Assembly (NCBI RefSeq): GCF_053078305.1
Contig: NZ_CP166879.1
Direction: 5' to 3' (one strand)
DNA length: 64,000 nt
Shown here in pieces: positions 1,100 through 46,710 of this stretch. Position 1 is the first letter of the stretch. Each line of letters begins with the position of its first letter. Made by a program: the position numbers and the translations under genes. The notes under the pieces were generated by a model. It did no database searches and was not told the DNA's origin. It saw only the letters and a program-made list of their open reading frames with translations.

Positions 1100-3352
1100 A
1101 TGGCAAAAAACACATCTTGCGGTGTCCAACTGCGTATTCGTGGCAAAGTGCAGGGCGTCGGTTTTCGTCCGTTTGTCTGGCAGCTGGCACAGCAATTAAA
1201 TCTTCACGGCGATGTCTGTAATGACGGCGATGGCGTAGAAGTCCGGCTGCTGGAAGACCCGGAAACGTTTCTTGTTCAATTGCATCAGCACTGTCCGCCA
1301 CTGGCGCGTATTGATAGCGTCGAGCGTGAGCCGTTTATCTGGCCACAGCTGCCCACCGAGTTCACCATCCGCCAGAGCACAGGCGGCGCCATGAATACGC
1401 AAATTGTTCCCGATGCCGCCACTTGCCCTGCTTGCCTTGCCGAAATGAATACCCCAGGCGAACGGCGTTATCGTTATCCGTTTATCAACTGTACCCACTG
1501 CGGCCCGCGCTTCACCATTATTCGCGCGATGCCTTACGATCGCCCGTTTACCGTGATGGCGGCGTTTCCGCTGTGTCCAGCCTGTGATAAAGAGTACCGC
1601 GACCCGCTCGATCGTCGCTTCCACGCCCAGCCGGTGGCCTGCCCGGAGTGTGGCCCGCATCTTGAATGGGTAAGTCATGGTGAACATGCAGAACAAGAGG
1701 CGGCATTACAGGCGGCTATCGCACAGTTAAAAATGGGCAACATTGTCGCCATCAAAGGGATTGGCGGATTTCATCTTGCCTGCGATGCACGTAACAGTAA
1801 CGCGGTGGCGACACTTCGGGCGCGCAAACATCGCCCGGCGAAACCGCTGGCAGTCATGTTGCCAGTGGCTGACGGTTTACCAGACGCTGCGCGCCAGTTG
1901 CTTACCACGCCCGCTGCGCCGATTGTGCTGGTGGATAAAAAATACGTACCTGAGATTTGTGATGATATCGCCCCTGGCCTTAACGAAGTCGGGGTGATGT
2001 TGCCTGCGAACCCGCTCCAGCATTTGCTGTTACAGGAACTGCAATGCCCGCTGGTGATGACCTCTGGCAACCTGAGCGGTAAACCACCGGCTATCAGCAA
2101 CGAACAGGCGCTGGCGGATTTGCAGGGCATTGCCGACGGATTCTTGATACATAACCGCGACATCGTACAGCGGATGGATGATTCGGTGGTGCGCGAAAGC
2201 GGCGAAATGCTGCGTCGTTCGCGGGGATATGTACCGGACGCACTGGCTTTGCCTCCGGGTTTTAAAAATGTTCCGCCTGTGCTGTGTCTCGGCGCGGATC
2301 TGAAAAACACCTTCTGCCTGGTGCGCGGTGAACAAGCGGTGTTGAGTCAGCATCTGGGCGATTTAAGTGACGATGGCATCCAGATGCAGTGGCGCGAAGC
2401 GTTACGCCTGATGCAAAACATCTACAATTTCACCCCGCAATACGTTGTGCATGACGCACATCCGGGCTATGTCTCCAGCCAGTGGGCGCGCGAAATGAAT
2501 ATGCCGGCGCAAACGGTACTGCATCATCATGCCCATGCAGCGGCGTGTCTGGCAGAGCATCAGTGGCCGCTGGATGGCGGTGATGTCATTGCTTTGACGC
2601 TCGACGGTATCGGTATGGGGGAGAACGGCGCTTTGTGGGGCGGCGAGTGCCTGCGGGTGAACTATCGCGAATGTGAGCACCTGGGCGGCTTGCCTGCAGT
2701 GGCGCTTCCGGGTGGCGATTTGGCGGCGAAGCAGCCGTGGCGTAACCTGCTGGCGCAGTGCCTGCGCTTTGTGCCGGAGTGGCAGAATTACCCTGAAACG
2801 GCAAGTGTGCAACAGCAAAACTGGAGCGTACTGGCGCGGGCCATTGAGCGTGGAATTAACGCGCCGCTGGCGTCATCGTGTGGGCGGGTGTTCGATGCAG
2901 TGGCGGCGGCACTGGGCTGTGCGCCAGCCACGTTAAGTTATGAAGGTGAAGCGGCTTGTGCTCTGGAGGCGCTCGCAGCCTCATGCCACGGAGTGACGCA
3001 TCCGGTGACAATGCCGCTGGTGGACAATCAACTGGATCTCGCCACTTTCTGGCAGCAGTGGCTGAACTGGCAGGCACCGGTTAATCAACGCGCGTGGGCG
3101 TTTCATGATGCGCTGGCGCAGGGTTTTGCCGCGTTGATGCGTGAGCAGGCCACGATGCACGGTATCACTACGCTGGTATTTAGCGGCGGGGTTATTCATA
3201 ACCGTTTGCTGCGTGCACGTCTGGCGCATTATCTCGCTGATTTCACATTGCTCTTCCCGCAGAGTTTACCGGCGGGTGATGGCGGTTTGTCTCTGGGGCA
3301 GGGGGTTATTGCTGCGGCGCGTTGGTTAGCGGGTGAAGTCCAGAACGGATAA
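1100..3352 (+). CDS. hypF: [NiFe]-hydrogenase maturation carbamoyltransferase HypF
   Basis: ORF 1028..3352; from [25 protein letters not shown].. it has acylphosphatase, two Zn-finger CxxC pairs, YrdC and Kae1-like regions typical of HypF; start placed at the ATG at 1100. Confidence 0.92.
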
Positions 3353-3376: not shown

Positions 3377-3672
<296 letters not shown>

Positions 3673-14875: not shown

Positions 14876-16014
<1,139 letters not shown>

Positions 16015-16040
16015 TCGTTCGTTATTGATGATAATAGATA

Positions 16041-16177
16041 ATGTGTGCACGGACGGTCCCCTCGCCCCTTTGGGGAGAGGGTTAGGGTGAGGGGAACAGG
16101 CCAGCACTGGCGTGAAAAATTACTCTCACCTCGATCCTCTAACGAATTGGGCCTGCGGGAACATTCTGCACACTCAT
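16041..16177. repeat. Small (about 137 bp) MITE-like intergenic element with imperfect terminal inverted repeats and an internal GC-rich palindrome
   Basis: Ends atgtgtgcac (16041-16050) and tgcacactcat (16167-16177) are inverted relative to each other; internal cccctcgcccc-ttt-ggggagaggg hairpin; no ORF. Confidence 0.5.
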
Positions 16178-16208
16178 TGACTATTAAATCTGTTTATCAG
16201 CAAAACCT

Positions 16209-16238
16209 GGGTCGCATCTGCGGCCCTTTTGCTTTTTT
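16209..16238 (+). terminator. Rho-independent terminator/attenuator between recA and recX
   Basis: Hairpin gggtcgc-atct-gcggccc followed by ttttgctttttt, ending about 18 bp before the recX ATG. Confidence 0.7.
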
Positions 16239-16256
16239 AAGTTGTAAGGATATGCC

Positions 16257-16757
16257 ATGACAGAATCAACGTCCCGTCGCCCGGCATATGCTCGCCTGTT
16301 GGATCGTGCGGTACGCATTCTGGCGGTGCGCGATCACAGTGAGCAAGAACTGCGACGTAAACTCGCGGCACCGATTATGGGCAAAAATGGCCCAGAAGAG
16401 ATTGATGCTACGGCAGAAGATTACGAGCGCGTTATTGCCTGGTGCCATGAACATGGCTATCTCGATGACAGCCGATTTGTTGCGCGCTTTATCGCCAGCC
16501 GTAGCCGCAAAGGTTATGGACCTGCGCGTATTCGCCAGGAACTGAATCAGAAAGGTATTTCCCGCGAAGCGACAGAAAAAGCGATGCGTGAATGTGACAT
16601 CGACTGGTGCGCACTGGCGCGCGATCAGGCGACGCGAAAATATGGTGAACCTTTGCCAACTGTCTTTTCAGAAAAAGTTAAGATCCAGCGTTTTCTGCTC
16701 TATCGTGGCTATCTGATGGAAGATATCCAGGATATTTGGCGAAATTTTGCCGACTGA
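16257..16757 (+). CDS. recX: RecA regulator RecX
   Basis: 166-aa ORF immediately downstream of recA; sequence matches RecX. Confidence 0.93.
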
Positions 16758-16884
16758 ACGCATACGGTATTTTACTTCCCAGTCAAGAAAACTTATCTTA
16801 TTCCCACTTTTCAGTTACCAGCCCGGCGGTTAAGACACGCTGGAGCTGGTGGCGATATTTCGTTAGCTTGATTTCAGGATAATT

Positions 16885-19515
16885 ATGAGCAAGAGCACCG
16901 CTGAGATCCGTCAGGCGTTTCTCGACTTTTTCCATAGTAAGGGACATCAGGTAGTTGCCAGCAGCTCCCTGGTACCCCATAACGACCCAACTTTGTTGTT
17001 TACCAACGCCGGGATGAACCAGTTCAAGGATGTGTTCCTTGGGCTCGACAAGCGTAATTATTCCCGCGCTACCACTTCCCAACGCTGCGTGCGTGCGGGT
17101 GGTAAACACAACGACCTGGAAAACGTCGGTTACACCGCGCGTCACCATACCTTCTTCGAAATGCTGGGCAACTTCAGCTTCGGCGACTATTTCAAACACG
17201 ATGCCATTCAGTTTGCATGGGAACTGCTGACCAGCGAAAAATGGTTTGCCCTGCCGAAAGAGCGTCTGTGGGTTACCGTCTATGAAAGCGACGACGAAGC
17301 CTACGAAATCTGGGAAAAAGAAGTAGGGATCCCGCGCGAACGTATTATTCGCATCGGCGATAACAAAGGTGCGCCATACGCATCTGACAACTTCTGGCAG
17401 ATGGGTGACACTGGTCCGTGCGGCCCGTGCACCGAAATCTTCTACGATCACGGCGACCACATTTGGGGTGGCCCTCCGGGAAGTCCGGAAGAAGACGGCG
17501 ACCGCTACATTGAGATCTGGAACATCGTCTTCATGCAGTTCAACCGCCAGGCCGATGGCACGATGGAACCGCTGCCGAAGCCGTCTGTAGATACCGGTAT
17601 GGGTCTGGAGCGTATTGCTGCGGTGCTGCAACACGTTAACTCTAACTATGACATCGACCTGTTCCGTACGCTGATCCAGGCGGTAGCGAAAGTCACTGGT
17701 GCAACCGATCTGAGCAATAAATCGCTGCGCGTAATCGCTGACCACATTCGTTCTTGTGCGTTCCTGATCGCGGATGGCGTAATGCCGTCCAACGAAAACC
17801 GTGGCTATGTACTGCGTCGTATCATTCGTCGCGCAGTACGTCACGGCAATATGCTGGGCGCGAAAGAAACCTTCTTCTACAAACTGGTTGGTCCGCTGAT
17901 CGACGTTATGGGCTCTGCGGGTGAAGACCTGAAGCGCCAGCAGGCGCAGGTTGAGCAGGTGCTGAAGACTGAAGAAGAGCAGTTTGCCCGTACTCTGGAG
18001 CGCGGTCTGGCGTTGCTGGATGAAGAGCTGGCAAAACTTTCTGGTGATACGCTGGATGGTGAAACTGCTTTCCGTCTGTACGACACCTATGGCTTCCCGG
18101 TTGACCTGACGGCTGATGTTTGTCGCGAGCGCAACATCAAAGTTGACGAAGCTGGTTTTGAAGCTGCAATGGAAGAGCAGCGTCGTCGCGCGCGCGAAGC
18201 CAGCGGCTTTGGTGCCGATTACAACGCAATGATCCGTGTTGACAGTGCATCTGAATTTAAAGGCTATGACCATCTGGAACTGAACGGCAAAGTGACCGCG
18301 CTGTTTGTTGATGGTAAAGCGGTTGATGCCATCAATGCAGGCCAGGAAGCTGTGGTCGTGCTGGATCAAACGCCATTCTATGCTGAATCCGGCGGTCAGG
18401 TTGGTGATAAAGGCGAACTGAAAGGCGCTAACTTCTCCTTCGTGGTGGAAGATACGCAGAAATACGGCCAGGCGATTGGTCACATCGGTAAACTTGCTGC
18501 GGGTTCTCTGAAAGTGGGCGACGCTGTGCAGGCTGATGTTGATGAGGCTCGTCGCGCCCGTATTCGTCTGAATCACTCCGCAACGCACCTGATGCACGCT
18601 GCGCTGCGCCAGGTTCTGGGTACTCATGTATCGCAGAAAGGTTCACTGGTTAACGACAAGGTGCTGCGCTTCGACTTCTCACACAACGAAGCGATGAAAC
18701 CAGAAGAGATTCGTGCGGTCGAAGACCTGGTGAACGCACAGATTCGTCGCAATTTGCCGATCGAAACCAACATCATGGATCTCGAAGCGGCGAAAGCGAA
18801 AGGTGCGATGGCGCTGTTCGGCGAGAAGTATGATGAGCGCGTACGCGTGCTGAGCATGGGCGATTTCTCCACCGAGCTGTGTGGCGGTACTCACGCCAGC
18901 CGCACTGGTGATATTGGTCTGTTCCGCATCATCTCTGAATCGGGTACTGCTGCAGGCGTTCGTCGTATTGAAGCGGTAACCGGAGAAGGCGCTATCGCCA
19001 CCGTTCATGCAGACAGCGATCGCTTAAGCGAAGTCGCACATCTGCTGAAAGGCGATAGCAATAATCTGGCTGATAAAGTGCGCTCAGTACTGGAACGTAC
19101 GCGTCAGTTAGAAAAAGAACTACAACAGCTTAAAGAACAAGCTGCCGCACAGGAGAGCGCAAATCTTTCCAGTAAGGCAATTGATGTTAATGGTGTTAAG
19201 CTGTTGGTTAGCGAGCTTAGCGGTGTTGAGCCGAAAATGTTGCGTACCATGGTTGACGATTTAAAAAATCAGCTGGGGTCGACAATTATCGTGCTGGCAA
19301 CGGTAGCCGAAGGTAAGGTTTCTCTGATTGCAGGCGTATCTAAGGACGTCACAGATCGTGTGAAAGCAGGGGAACTGATTGGTATGGTCGCTCAGCAGGT
19401 GGGCGGCAAGGGTGGTGGACGTCCTGACATGGCGCAAGCCGGTGGTACGGATGCTGCGGCCTTACCTGCAGCGTTAGCCAGTGTGAAAGGCTGGGTCAGC
19501 GCGAAATTGCAATAA
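16885..19515 (+). CDS. alaS: Alanine--tRNA ligase
   Basis: 876-aa ORF; [24 protein letters not shown].. class II aaRS; C-terminal editing and DHHA1 regions. Confidence 0.98.
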
Positions 19516-20250: not shown

Positions 20251-20343
20251 GGTGAGGTGGCCGAGAGGCTGAAGGCGCTCCCCTGCTAAGGGAGTATGCG
20301 GTCAAAAGCTGCATCCGGGGTTCGAATCCCCGCCTCACCGCCA
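20251..20343 (+). tRNA. serV: tRNA-Ser (anticodon GCU), long variable arm
   Basis: ggtgaggtggccgagaggctgaagg..ccgcctcaccgcca; anticodon loop cuGCUaa; about 93 nt with encoded CCA. Confidence 0.9.
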
Positions 20344-20346
20344 TTT

Positions 20347-20423
20347 GCATCCGTAGCTCAGCTGGATAGAGTACTCGGCTACGAACCGAGCGGTCGGAGG
20401 TTCGAATCCTCCCGGATGCACCA
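20347..20423 (+). tRNA. tRNA-Arg (anticodon ACG), copy 1
   Basis: gcatccgtagctcagctggatagagtactcggctACGaaccgagcggtcggaggttcgaatcctcccggatgcacca (77 nt). Confidence 0.92.
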
Positions 20424-20487
20424 TCTCTTACTTGATACGGCTTTAGTAGCGGTATCAAAAAATCTGCAGTAAAGTAAGTTTCCCGAT

Positions 20488-20564
20488 GCATCCGTAGCTC
20501 AGCTGGATAGAGTACTCGGCTACGAACCGAGCGGTCGGAGGTTCGAATCCTCCCGGATGCACCA
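20488..20564 (+). tRNA. tRNA-Arg (anticodon ACG), copy 2
   Basis: Identical 77-nt sequence to copy 1. Confidence 0.92.
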
Positions 20565-20626
20565 TCTCTTACTTGATATGGCTTTAGTAGCGGTATCAAT
20601 ATCAGCAGTAAAATAAATTTCCCGAT

Positions 20627-20703
20627 GCATCCGTAGCTCAGCTGGATAGAGTACTCGGCTACGAACCGAGCGGTCGGAGGTTCGAATCCTCCCGGATGCA
20701 CCA
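20627..20703 (+). tRNA. tRNA-Arg (anticodon ACG), copy 3
   Basis: Identical 77-nt sequence to copy 1. Confidence 0.92.
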
Positions 20704-20838
20704 TATTCTCCGAAATCTTCAGCAATGAAGATATCGAAGAGGTAGCGGAATTAACCGCAGGCACCAGGGAGGATAACGTTGCGCCAGCAACGGCCCGAAG
20801 GGCGAGCCGCAAGGCGAGTAATCCTCCCGGATGCACCA
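20704..20838 (+). repeat. About 135-bp spacer repeat ending in a tRNA-Arg 3' remnant (aatcctcccggatgcacca), unit 1
   Basis: Read from sequence: ttctccgaaatcttcagcaatgaagatatcgaagaggtagcggaattaaccgcaggcaccagg.. ends with the last 19 nt of tRNA-Arg. Confidence 0.7.
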
Positions 20839-20901
20839 TCTCTTACTTGATATGGCTTTAGTAGCGATATCAATATCAGCAGTAAAATAAATTTTCCCGA
20901 T

Positions 20902-20978
20902 GCATCCGTAGCTCAGCTGGATAGAGTACTCGGCTACGAACCGAGCGGTCGGAGGTTCGAATCCTCCCGGATGCACCA
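20902..20978 (+). tRNA. tRNA-Arg (anticodon ACG), copy 4
   Basis: Identical 77-nt sequence to copy 1. Confidence 0.92.
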
Positions 20979-23887: not shown

Positions 23888-23960
23888 AAAAAGGCCACTC
23901 GTGAGTGGCCAAAATTTCATCTCTGAATTCAGGGATGATGATAACAAATGCGCGTCTTTC
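23888..23960 (-). ncRNA. micA: MicA (SraD) Hfq-dependent small RNA
   Basis: Minus-strand sequence gaaagacgcgcatttgttatcatcatccctgaattcagagatgaaattttggccactcacgagtggccttttt matches MicA including its terminator hairpin; lies between gshA and luxS. Confidence 0.9.
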
Positions 23961-30554: not shown

Positions 30555-30636
<82 letters not shown>

Positions 30637-35277: not shown

Positions 35278-37422
35278 TTAAAGTGCACAGGAGACGCAGC
35301 CTTCAATTTCAGTGCCTTCCAGCGCCATCTGACGCAGGCGGATGTAATAGAGCGTTTTGATACCTTTGCGCCAGGCGTAAATCTGCGCTTTGTTGATATC
35401 GCGAGTGGTGGCGGTATCGGGGAAAAACAGCGTCAGCGACAGCCCCTGATCGACATGGCGAGTCGCTTCCGCGTAGGTGTCGATGATCTTTTCTGCGCCG
35501 ATTTCGTAAGCGTCCTGATACAGCGCCAGATTTTCGTTAGTCATAAATGGGGCAGGGTAGTAAACGCGTCCTGTTTTGCCCTCTTTGCGTATCTCTACTT
35601 TCGCCACAATCGGATGAATACTCGACGTGGCATGGTTGATATAAGAGATAGAACCGGTTGGCGGCACCGCCTGGAGATTCTGGTTGTAAATGCCGTAGCG
35701 CATCACGTCATCGCGCAGTTGCGCCCACATCTCACGGGTAGGTAACGTAATACCGCTGCGGGCAAACAGTTCGCCAACTTTCGCCGTTTTCGGCTGCCAG
35801 TTACCTTGCAGATATTGGCTGAAATATTCACCACTGGCATAGCGTGACTGTTTGAACCCGGCGAAGGTTTGACCGCGTTCGCGCGCCAGCAACATCGAGG
35901 TACGCAGTGCGTGCCAGGTGATGGTATAGAAATAGAGATTGGTGAAATCCAGTGCTTCCGGCGAACCATAAGCGATGCCTTCTCGCGCCAGATAACCGTG
36001 TAAATTCATCTGCCCCAGTCCGATGGCGTGCGAGGCGGCATTTCCGGCTTCGATGGACGGTACGCTGCGAATATGACTCATATCTGATACTGCCGTTAAA
36101 CCGCGCACGGCAGTCTCTACCGTGCGGGCAAAGTAGGGGGAATCCATGGTGTGGGCAATATTCAACGAACCTAAATTGCAGGAGATATCATGGCCTGTGC
36201 GGGCATAGTCGAGATTCTCGTTATACTCTGAGGCGCTGTTAACCTGCAAAATCTCTGAGCAGAGATTACTCATATTTATGCGCCCGGCGATAGGGTTAGC
36301 ACGGTTTACCGTGTCTTCATACATGATGTACGGATAGCCGGACTCAAACTGGATTTCTGCCAGTCGCTGGAAGAAATCACGGGCGTTGAGGTATTTTTTT
36401 CGAATGCGTTCATCGGCAACCAGTTCGTCATAGTGTTGACTGATGGCCACATCGGCAAACGGCTTGCCATAAACTCGCTCTACGTCATAAGGCGAAAACA
36501 GCGCCATCTGCGCATTCTCTTTTGCCAGATGGAAAGTGATATCCGGGATCACCACGCCAAGCGACAGTGTTTTAATGCGGATTTTTTCGTCGGCATTTTC
36601 CCGTTTCGTGTCGAGAAAACGCAGAATATCGGGATGATGAGCATGTAAATAGACTGCACCAGCCCCCTGACGAGCGCCGAGTTGGTTGGCATAGGAAAAT
36701 GCGTCTTCCAGCATTTTCATCACAGGAATTACGCCAGAAGATTGATTTTCAATACGTTTAATTGGCGCGCCCGCTTCCCGCAGATTCGACAGCAAAAATG
36801 CTACGCCGCCGCCGCGTTTCGACAGTTGCAGTGCGGAATTTACCGCCCGACCAATCGACTCCATATTGTCTTCAATACGCAGCAAAAAACAGGAAACCAG
36901 TTCGCCGCGCTGCTGCTTACCGCAGTTGAGGAATGTTGGCGTGGCTGGCTGAAAGCGTCCTGACAGCATCTCATCTGTCAGTTGCAACGCCAGCGTCTCA
37001 TCGCCTTGTGCCAGCGTCAGCGCCACCATCGTGACTCGATCGGCAAAATCTTCCAGATAACGTTTACCGTCGAATGTCTTCAACGTATAGCTGGTGTAAA
37101 ACTTCCATGCCCCGAGGAATGTCTGGAAACGAAAACCGCTGGTGTGTGCGTGGTCAAACAGCGTAATGACAAAGTCGCGAGAGTAGCGATTAAGAACGCT
37201 TTCATCATAGTAACCTTCGTTGACCAGCCAGTTCAGGCGCTGCTGCTGGCTACTGAAGGTCACACTGTTCGGACGCACATGCGTCGCAATAAAGGCGTCA
37301 ACGGCCTGGCGGTCTTTATCGAACTGAATGCGACCTGCGCTATCGTAGAGGTTAAGCATCGCATTCAGCGCGTGGTAATCCATCGTTTCCTGCGTCAGGC
37401 ATTCTGCGGTTGTCGTTGCCAA
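35278..37422 (-). CDS. nrdE: Class Ib ribonucleotide reductase alpha subunit NrdE
   Basis: 714-aa ORF; C-terminal redox cysteine pair and RNR catalytic core. Confidence 0.95.
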
Positions 37423-46630: not shown

Positions 46631-46710
46631 GTCGGATGCGGCGTAAACGCCTTATCCGACCTACATTTCCGTAGGCCGGACAAGACGCGCAGCGTCGCCT
46701 CCGGCATGGG
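46631..46710. repeat. REP (palindromic unit) elements between gabP and gabT
   Basis: ggatgcggcgtaaacgccttatccgacctac..gtaggccggacaagacgcgcagcgtcgcctccggc. Confidence 0.85.

Follow-up and report, generated by a model that had tools for sequence, protein, structure and literature searches.

The literature on the BoxC repeat of Escherichia coli is said to include work by Bergler in 1992 and the reviews of Bachellier. Several other small palindromic repeats share the intergenic regions of this organism. BIME-1 units (RIP or RIB) consist of two REP sequences around a linker with an IHF site and lie at the 3' ends of transcription units. REPINs are doublets of REP sequences that form hairpins and are mobilised by RAYT transposases; their description is reportedly due to Bertels and Rainey in 2011. 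ERIC (IRU) elements are palindromic, are transcribed in 3' untranslated regions and vary in their presence between strains. The repeat known as BoxC in the literature of the 1990s was called PIT, for potential intrastrand triplex, by Hoyne and Maher in 2000/2002, and TMECO by Holder et al. in 2015 (PMC4666352). The K-12 chromosome holds 23 TMECO motifs, and five of its sites have a pair made up of one type A motif and one type B motif in inverted orientation (PMC4666352). The same authors counted one or two TMECO motifs in strains of phylogroup B2, and reported no association of the family with phages or plasmids (Holder et al., PMC4666352).

Here we describe a long form of the recA-recX spacer which, judged by its sequence, very probably owes its extra 174 bp to a paired-form copy of this repeat. 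The window, by which we mean the whole 64-kb stretch of DNA that was analysed, is E. coli DNA, and the spacer and its flanking genes are organised as follows.

14953-16014, plus strand: recA coding sequence, from the open reading frame list, with its stop codon TAA at 16012-16014 and a translation ending in ETNEDF, which served as the RecA query.
16015-16256, plus strand: recA-recX spacer, long allele, 242 bp, from the recA stop codon to the recX ATG (16257).
16015-16025, plus strand: left junction TCGTTCGTTAT, from the recA stop codon to the element, placed by K-12 alignment and a table of termini.
16026-16203, plus strand: whole repeat unit of 178 bp, a composite BoxC forming a long imperfect palindrome, delimited by end-to-end alignment with the K-12 gcvP-ygfF BoxC pair.
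16026-16056, plus strand: left outer arm (extension) TGATGATAATAGATAATGTGTGCACGGACGG, identical to K-12 gcvP-ygfF at 20 of 26 aligned positions and pairing with 16164-16190.
16059-16094, plus strand: intact BoxC/PIT/TMECO motif CCCTCGCCCCTTTGGGGAGAGGGTTAGGGTGAGGGG, of type A with one mismatch, fitting the published consensus pattern exactly.
16097-16121, plus strand: conserved 25-nt linker CAGGCCAGCACTGGCGTGAAAAATT between the BoxC arms, 21/25 identical to the K-12 gcvP-ygfF and alx-sstT linkers.
16122-16163, plus strand: second BoxC arm, inverted and decayed, of type B origin with CGA replacing CGG, matching the intact inverted type B arm of gcvP-ygfF at 29/39 positions.
16164-16203, plus strand: right outer arm (extension), ending in ...CTGTTTATCAGCAA, identical to the gcvP-ygfF copy at 21 of 29 aligned positions.
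16204-16208, plus strand: AACCT, the gap between element and terminator, which is the same in the E. albertii allele.
16209-16238, plus strand: recA intrinsic terminator, stem-loop GGGTCGC-ATCT-GCGGCCC followed by TTTTGCTTTTTT, from the terminator scan and identical in K-12.
16245-16250, plus strand: recX ribosome-binding region TAAGGA, the same in K-12 by alignment.
16257-16757, plus strand: recX coding sequence, 166 amino acids, from the open reading frame list and annotated as recX in matching genomes.

A preceding sequence-only reading had described a recA-recX spacer of 242 bp, and the positions of the recA TAA (16012-16014) and the recX ATG (16257) confirm this length. Its figure of about 70 bp for the K-12 spacer was also right: in MG1655 the spacer is 68 bp long (recA start at 2822708 and recX end at 2822639, complement strand), and an identical 242-bp spacer is not found in K-12. 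The genes on either side differ little from those of K-12, with 99.8% identity over the last 600 nt of recA and 99.4% over recX. Within the spacer, the alignment with K-12 ends after TAATCGT. The element lies in the recA 3' untranslated region, downstream of the stop codon, and a gap of 5 nt separates it from the intrinsic terminator. The only open reading frames that cross it are spurious ones of 71 and 51 amino acids.

The extent of the repeat is best seen from its alignment with the gcvP-ygfF pair. The sequence-only reading had placed the element at about 16041-16177 (some 137 bp); the homology spans 16026-16203, so these limits left out about 15 nt at the left end and about 26 nt at the right. 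The termini of the unit, TGATGATAA... and ...TTTATCAGCAA, are separated by 178 nt, a size which agrees with the difference of 174 bp in length between the alleles. The imperfect terminal inverted repeats noticed earlier are real and longer than had been given, comprising 30-nt arms at 16032-16061 and 16157-16186 (70% complementary) together with outer arms at 16025-16034 and 16194-16203 (90%); the internal GC-rich palindrome of that reading was located at 16057-16067 and 16085-16095. As RNA, positions 16026-16190 are predicted to fold into one long hairpin of 60 bp (-71.2 kcal/mol, z = -6.07; none of 200 shuffled sequences was as stable) with the linker at 16097-16121 at its tip. Six of the 60 pairs are G-U pairs, no more than in the intact K-12 copies. 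Selection at the RNA level, as a possible reason for G-U pairs in excess in the decayed arm, was rejected on this count.

Several observations identify the unit as BoxC. A regular-expression search with the TMECO pattern, 5'-CCCTCNCCC N3-6 GGGNGAGGG N3 GGGNGAGGG[GTC-]-3', returned 16059-16094 as the sole copy in the 64-kb window, and this core is identical to K-12 TMECO nos. 7, 11 and 15 (Table 1, PMC4666352). The type A arm as a whole agrees with that of the K-12 gcvP-ygfF pair at 40/40 aligned positions. The paired arrangement is present as well, an intact type A arm being followed by the linker (21/25) and by an inverted, decayed arm derived from type B (29/39). When other copies were checked they matched the 178-bp unit, as BoxC identity requires. 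The element thus resembles BoxC in its exact 36-nt core, its intergenic position, its multiple copies, its A and inverted B arms, a copy number that depends on lineage and a polymorphic site. It departs from consensus BoxC in that its second arm has decayed and no longer fits; this arm, at 16122-16163, falls outside the TMECO pattern, and the same decayed arm occurs in Escherichia sp. E1V33. The 178-bp unit, with its outer arms and conserved linker, is also longer than the 36-nt TMECO or the 56-bp BoxC that are usually quoted. For the composite we considered the name RSA, a repeat which is listed in a table entry as 150 bp long with six copies in K-12. No Rfam family matched the spacer, either in a search of 15000-17500 at the E-value threshold or in one of the whole window at the gathering threshold. 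As isolated strands, oligonucleotides identical to the core form an intrastrand purine-motif triplex in vitro, as judged by CD and NMR, and the structure was not seen in vivo (PMC4666352).

The repeat family and this site are already on record, the former since the 1990s and the latter in a catalogue of 2015. Entry No. 91 in Table S8 of Holder et al. (2015) is a TMECO motif of strain E24377A at NC_009801 2983331-2983296. TMECO No. 91 falls within the 242-bp spacer of that genome, between the end of recX at 2983133 and the start of recA at 2983376. The site is given there by coordinates, and recA and recX as names of flanking genes are absent from the text and supplementary files of that paper.

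Among other repeat systems, BIME-1 units come close to the element in two respects. They too lie between the stop codon of a gene and its terminator, and their ends, TGATGACAAA... and ...TTTGTCAGCAA, appear similar to its own; E. albertii has such a unit at recA-recX itself, with a shared right junction. Unlike BIME-1, the element has neither a REP nor an IHF-type linker, and its core is BoxC. In line with this, a search of the window with the Y-type REP pattern gave matches only at 3377 and 46631 and none in the spacer. To REPINs it is likened by its form, an inverted doublet of a short palindromic repeat with a short spacer that folds into one long hairpin, and by being intergenic and multi-copy; it differs from them in that the GTAG/CTAC tetranucleotide of E. 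coli REPs is absent from BoxC. To our knowledge, no RAYT is associated with BoxC. ERIC elements resemble it in size, palindromic structure, transcription in 3' untranslated regions and variable presence between strains, but show no sequence similarity to it.

To determine how widely the element is distributed, the 242-bp spacer was searched against complete E. coli genomes by megablast. Matches were found at 37170 places in 5425 of 5426 genomes, the recA-recX locus itself included, with a median of 7 and a maximum of 14 per genome, nearly all of them chromosomal. The search for further copies thus bore out the suggestion that the element is repetitive and not single-copy. Some genomes are far richer in BoxC, Enterobacter asburiae LF7a having 143 copies. 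On phages and true plasmids our searches found essentially no BoxC, most of the large "plasmid" matches being chromosome-sized records. The long allele at recA-recX is present in 1634 of the 5426 genomes (30%), and its carriers include O145 strains, E24377A, DEC9B and many animal and environmental isolates. All 41 of the genomes sampled from those without it had a spacer of 67 or 68 bp (a span of 266-268 bp, compared with 442 bp). Short-allele genomes include K-12, HS, C600 and O157:H7, as well as those in the sample that have a single BoxC match and probably belong to phylogroup B2. The long alleles are 99.3-100% identical to each other and carry occasional single-nucleotide polymorphisms, two of which lie within the BoxC core.

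An outgroup sample, in which the locus was anchored on RecX and fetched from 79 Enterobacteriaceae species, places these alleles in a wider setting. The spacer measured 66-73 bp in 50 species, 76-91 bp in 8 and at least 100 bp in 21; in the 50 species with short spacers, among them E. whittamii, about 20 nt separate the stop codon from the terminator. Since 50/79 species have a spacer of 66-73 bp, the short spacer is ancestral and the BoxC allele derived. Outside E. coli, the 242-bp allele is also found in Escherichia sp. E1V33, where the spacer shows 13 differences, and Escherichia sp. MOD1-EC7003 has a decayed remnant whose left junction is that of the window. By these sequence comparisons, the allele is either old or well travelled and is present in at least one other Escherichia species. 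Between E1V33 and the window the element is 99.4% identical, compared with 97.8% for recA, 95.6% for recX and 84.8% for the right flank; conservation of the element above its flanks could reflect constraint or recent transfer. Constraint on the BoxC core was considered separately, and the occasional polymorphisms within the core of E. coli long alleles are evidence against it.

How the element came to lie here was considered in the light of the two alleles. The description of the element as MITE-like, made in the sequence-only reading, holds in so far as it is small, non-coding, palindromic, bounded by inverted repeats, multi-copy and present or absent between strains; it fails in that no target-site duplication and no known transposase go with it. 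The family to which the element belongs has a name of its own and has not been established as a MITE; the term is only partly apt. That it is a true MITE, a non-autonomous element moved by a transposase which recognises its terminal inverted repeats, is accordingly regarded as very improbable. Its inverted repeats, small size, lack of coding capacity, multiple copies and presence/absence polymorphism are what such an element would display, but comparison with the K-12 site revealed no convincing target-site duplication, the flanks TCGTTCGTTAT and AACCTGGG not being direct repeats. Neither do TCGTTCGTTAT and AACCT, the sequences that border the unit, contain one. A clean insertion would not turn one allele into the other, since the 16 nt that precede the terminator in K-12 (CTTGTTTGATACACAA) are replaced. 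A weak likeness of both flanks to the K-12 pre-terminator sequence was considered as a possible duplication and rejected, being within what AT-rich sequence gives. There is no known insertion sequence whose ends match, Holder et al. found neither transposase or integrase remnants nor such insertion sequences near TMECO sites (PMC4666352), and copies hardly ever occur on phages or true plasmids. Variation at other loci likewise takes the form of decay or collapse and not of clean excision. At the alx-sstT BoxC locus no clean empty site was found among the strains compared; one strain with a single BoxC match, probably of phylogroup B2, has a collapsed hairpin remnant there, and another has unrelated DNA.

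The reverse history, in which the ancestral spacer was the long one and a deletion removed the element from K-12, would draw on the fact that BoxC pairs do undergo internal deletions (PMC4666352), and on a loose likeness, judged by eye, between the K-12 pre-terminator sequence TGTTTGATACACAA and the right end of the element TGTTTATCAGCAAAA. We consider it hardly credible in view of the spacer of 66-73 bp in 50/79 Enterobacteriaceae species, E. whittamii included, and of one E. albertii allele which combines the K-12-type 20 nt after the stop codon with an element-type right end. Because E. albertii carries both sequences, the K-12 pre-terminator and the element end are separate, and neither is derived from the other. 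A derived BoxC copy in an ancestrally short spacer is therefore the reading that we retain.

We next consider whether the element affects the expression of recX. The sequence-only reading had placed it upstream of the terminator hairpin at 16209-16238, and the terminator scan agrees, returning this as the sole terminator-like site within 15800-16500. The hairpin itself (16209-16226) has a 7-bp stem with six GC pairs and a 4-nt loop, is followed by TTTTGCTTTT and folds with -13.5 kcal/mol. A promoter scan of the same region, 15800-16500, found no sigma-70-like promoter able to drive recX. Alignment with K-12 shows no difference between the alleles in the terminator or in the recX ribosome-binding site. 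In E. coli, recX is expressed through about 10% read-through of the recA terminator, as Pages et al. (2003) are cited in PMC3542578. PIT elements are reported, in the account given in PMC4666352, to be without promoter or terminator activity and without effect on RNA polymerase. As far as can be told from that account, these tests apparently concerned PIT elements in reporter contexts and not the present composite in the recA 3' untranslated region.

Under the reading that we favour, the element would be transcribed within the recA mRNA and would form one long hairpin in its 3' untranslated region. With the terminator and the translation signals of recX untouched, recX would still be expressed from read-through of about 10%, as in K-12. 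A large effect on read-through is not expected, given that the terminator and ribosome-binding site are identical and that PIT elements are reported to lack promoter and terminator activity. We infer that the element, given its BoxC identity, is probably a passenger that leaves the RecA:RecX ratio unchanged or nearly so, a view that we hold with reasonable but by no means full confidence.

The sequence-only reading had raised the opposite view, that the element alters read-through and with it the RecA:RecX ratio. A working 3'-untranslated element in long-allele strains might do so by slowing 3'-to-5' decay of the recA mRNA, by adding a pause or termination point, or by offering RNase III a cutting site that separates the recA message from that of recX. 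The hairpin is long and stable, at 60 bp and -71.2 kcal/mol (z = -6.07), and stands 18 nt upstream of the terminator, where, followed by UGUUUAUC, it might pause or weakly terminate RNA polymerase; its AU-rich base, however, is poorly suited to intrinsic termination, and in the family tests published so far, as relayed in PMC4666352, the elements neither acted as terminators or promoters nor affected RNA polymerase. In the RNA fold, AGCAAAA also pairs with the T tract over its first 7 nt, so that this A-rich stretch of the long allele could change the efficiency of a terminator on whose read-through recX relies. Between two Escherichia species the element is better conserved than its flanks, but individual strains carry polymorphisms in the BoxC core, and the G-U content of the hairpin is that of other copies. 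Finally, the element is absent from 70% of E. coli genomes, very successful lineages among them. We therefore think it unlikely, though not negligibly so, that the hairpin is a working regulatory element. With two barriers in series, any effect that it did have would be expected as less read-through and not more.

Across lineages, small repeats of four different kinds occupy the short stretch that separates the recA stop codon from the terminator. E. coli has BoxC at this spot, and E. albertii a BIME-1/RIP-type unit with two REPs around an IHF-type linker. MOD1-EC7003 has, beside its BoxC remnant, 5.1 tandem copies of a 169-bp unit made up of a BIME and a terminator-like hairpin. Silvania confinis has an ERIC element between recA and recX, two further genomes have remnants of ERIC, and Kluyvera sichuanensis has a REP-like pair. 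In E. coli the unit of E. albertii is found again at aspC-gloC and artJ-rlmC. At all three sites the local terminator hairpin is present in two diverged copies, one on either side of the unit, and only the right-hand copy has a T tract.

The ends of the element were compared with those of such units. A left end TGATGACAAAG... and a right end ...TTTGYYAGCAA(TCT) appear to be common to BIME-1 units and to BoxC at recA-recX, gcvP-ygfF and two metagenome loci. At one of these metagenome loci most contigs have a BoxC/REP chimera and another contig has a full BoxC pair; at the second, a single BoxC lies inside the same ends. The left outer arm of the element (16026-16056) is similar to the left end of BIME-1/RIP units, and the right-end motif TTT(G/A)TCAGCAA is common to these units and to the E. 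albertii allele at the same locus. The right junction, AGCAAAACCT followed by GGGTCGC, is identical in the window and in E. albertii. Both ends of the 178-bp unit resemble the RIP ends at aspC-gloC, artJ-rlmC and E. albertii recA-recX; these ends were located by pattern, so that a shuffle test of the resemblance is biased. A metagenome scan for the left end together with BoxC gave a full TMECO in 19 of 120 matches, about a dozen of these 19 being enterobacterial and the rest of the matches mostly due to chance. The alx-sstT pair of K-12 does not have both shared ends, and examples of shared ends are few.

These observations allow the tentative suggestion, which we regard as possible but doubtful, that BoxC and BIME-1/RIP are alternative cores of one terminator-associated mosaic frame with shared ends. 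Under such a reading, the recA-recX locus may have undergone one insertion followed by a swap of cores, or a single insertion mechanism may be aimed at terminators. Bachellier et al. are said to have described, in 1997, boxC insertions in or near BIMEs as well as external motifs of BIME-1. Part of the shared-ends observation may already be known.

Taken as a whole, the finding is real but ordinary. It has some practical bearing, in that recA-recX primers and MLST-type amplicons will meet a lineage difference of 174 bp, and that strains with the long, non-K-12 allele have a recA 3' untranslated region of about 225 nt with a strong hairpin, which calls for caution in applying K-12 data on recX read-through to B1-type and STEC strains. 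The locus also offers a natural pair of alleles for testing the effect of BoxC on a well-measured transcript. The shared ends are the only part that might repay more work. Together with the occurrence of four kinds of repeat at one spot, they bear on how BoxC spreads, and a shared frame, if true, would tie BoxC to the REP/BIME system and possibly to its machinery.

The spacer of Escherichia sp. E1V33 (locus L003, 1259-1500) was compared with positions 16015-16256 of the window. The 178-bp element differed at 2 positions, whereas 3 differences were found in the 5 nt 3' of it and 7 in the recX ribosome-binding region; recA and recX were 97.8% and 95.6% identical, respectively. The surroundings are less conserved than the element itself. 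Its higher conservation in E1V33 may reflect constraint, recent transfer or chance.

The context of the recA terminator was examined by comparing window 16191-16240 with the K-12 spacer. AGCAAAA at 16199-16205 of the long allele can pair without mismatch with the terminator U tract over its first 7 nt, and the folding energy is -19.0 kcal/mol, versus -17.4 kcal/mol in the K-12 context. AGCAAAA is a second difference between the alleles and could affect termination independently of BoxC.

Plasmid-borne matches to the spacer made up only 9 of the 37170 places. One of these lies at 1627-1664 of NZ_CP074792.1, a record of 154,743 bp from the E. coli collection, where 38 nt match the BoxC core exactly; apart from such rare cases, BoxC hardly occurs on plasmids or phages. 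An Rfam scan of the window at the gathering threshold returned the first five entries below, and REP sequences occur at two positions.

Window 20251-20975, five-tRNA cluster, downstream of alaS
Window 23889-23960, MicA sRNA
Window 30558-30635, naRNA4 (REP-derived nucleoid-associated RNA)
Window 54896-54967, one further tRNA
Window 62793-63155, tmRNA
Window 3377-3410 and 46631-46664, REP sequences

The alx-sstT locus of K-12 (L084) was compared with those of strains FDAARGOS_1298 (L087) and NS-NP030 (L088). FDAARGOS_1298, which is probably B2, has a single BoxC match in its genome; at alx-sstT its outer arms are retained and the BoxC pair is replaced by a single collapsed hairpin, CCCTCTCCCCAAAAGGGGCGAGGGG. 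NS-NP030 carries approximately 500 bp of unrelated GC-rich sequence at this locus.

Small repeats of other kinds occupy the recA-recX spacer in other genera:

Silvania confinis (L019), 195 bp, contains CAGTAAGTGACTGGGGTGAGCG
Loci L060 and L065, 149 bp
Kluyvera sichuanensis (L032), 152 bp, GTAG...CTAC pair

Judged by the consensus sequences, the CAGTAAGTGACTGGGGTGAGCG-bearing repeat is probably an ERIC/IRU element, the L060 and L065 spacers presumably hold ERIC end remnants, and the Kluyvera pair is assumed to be REP-like.

Within Escherichia, the 238-bp spacer of E. albertii (L007, 1263-1500) holds a BIME-1/RIP-type unit where the window has BoxC, in the order Z-type REP, IHF-like linker, Y-type REP. 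The recA terminator hairpin flanks this unit on both sides, one copy being degenerate and the other intact, and the right junction, AGCAAAACCT followed directly by GGGTCGC, is the same as in the window. The spacer of Escherichia sp. MOD1-EC7003 (L005, 479-1500) reaches 1022 bp. A decayed remnant of BoxC, whose left junction matches that of the window, precedes a tandem array at 597-1471; its repeat unit of 169 bp, in which a BIME is combined with a terminator-like hairpin, is present in 5.1 copies that are 94% alike.

BoxC and REP parts also meet at one enterobacterial locus in metagenome contigs:

L104, about 2390-2650, minus strand; same locus in L106, L167, L185 and L192, variant in L151

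The order in L104 is a terminator-like hairpin, the left end motif, one BoxC of type A, the linker start, and a Y-type REP in inverted orientation together with its flanking sequence. By this arrangement the locus is a BoxC/REP chimera; in contig L151 the position is taken by a full BoxC pair.

Finally, the ends of RIP units from K-12 aspC-gloC (L090), artJ-rlmC (L091) and E. albertii (L007) were compared with those of BoxC elements (window 16026-16203; L002, 1483-1657; L147, 2873-2983). A left end, TGATGACAAAG..., and a right end, ...TTTGYYAGCAA, appear to be common to BoxC elements and BIME-1/RIP units, and at all three RIP sites the local terminator hairpin is present twice, in diverged copies on either side of the unit. 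The similar ends suggest that BoxC and RIP may have a common mosaic frame, or may share a mode of insertion at terminators.
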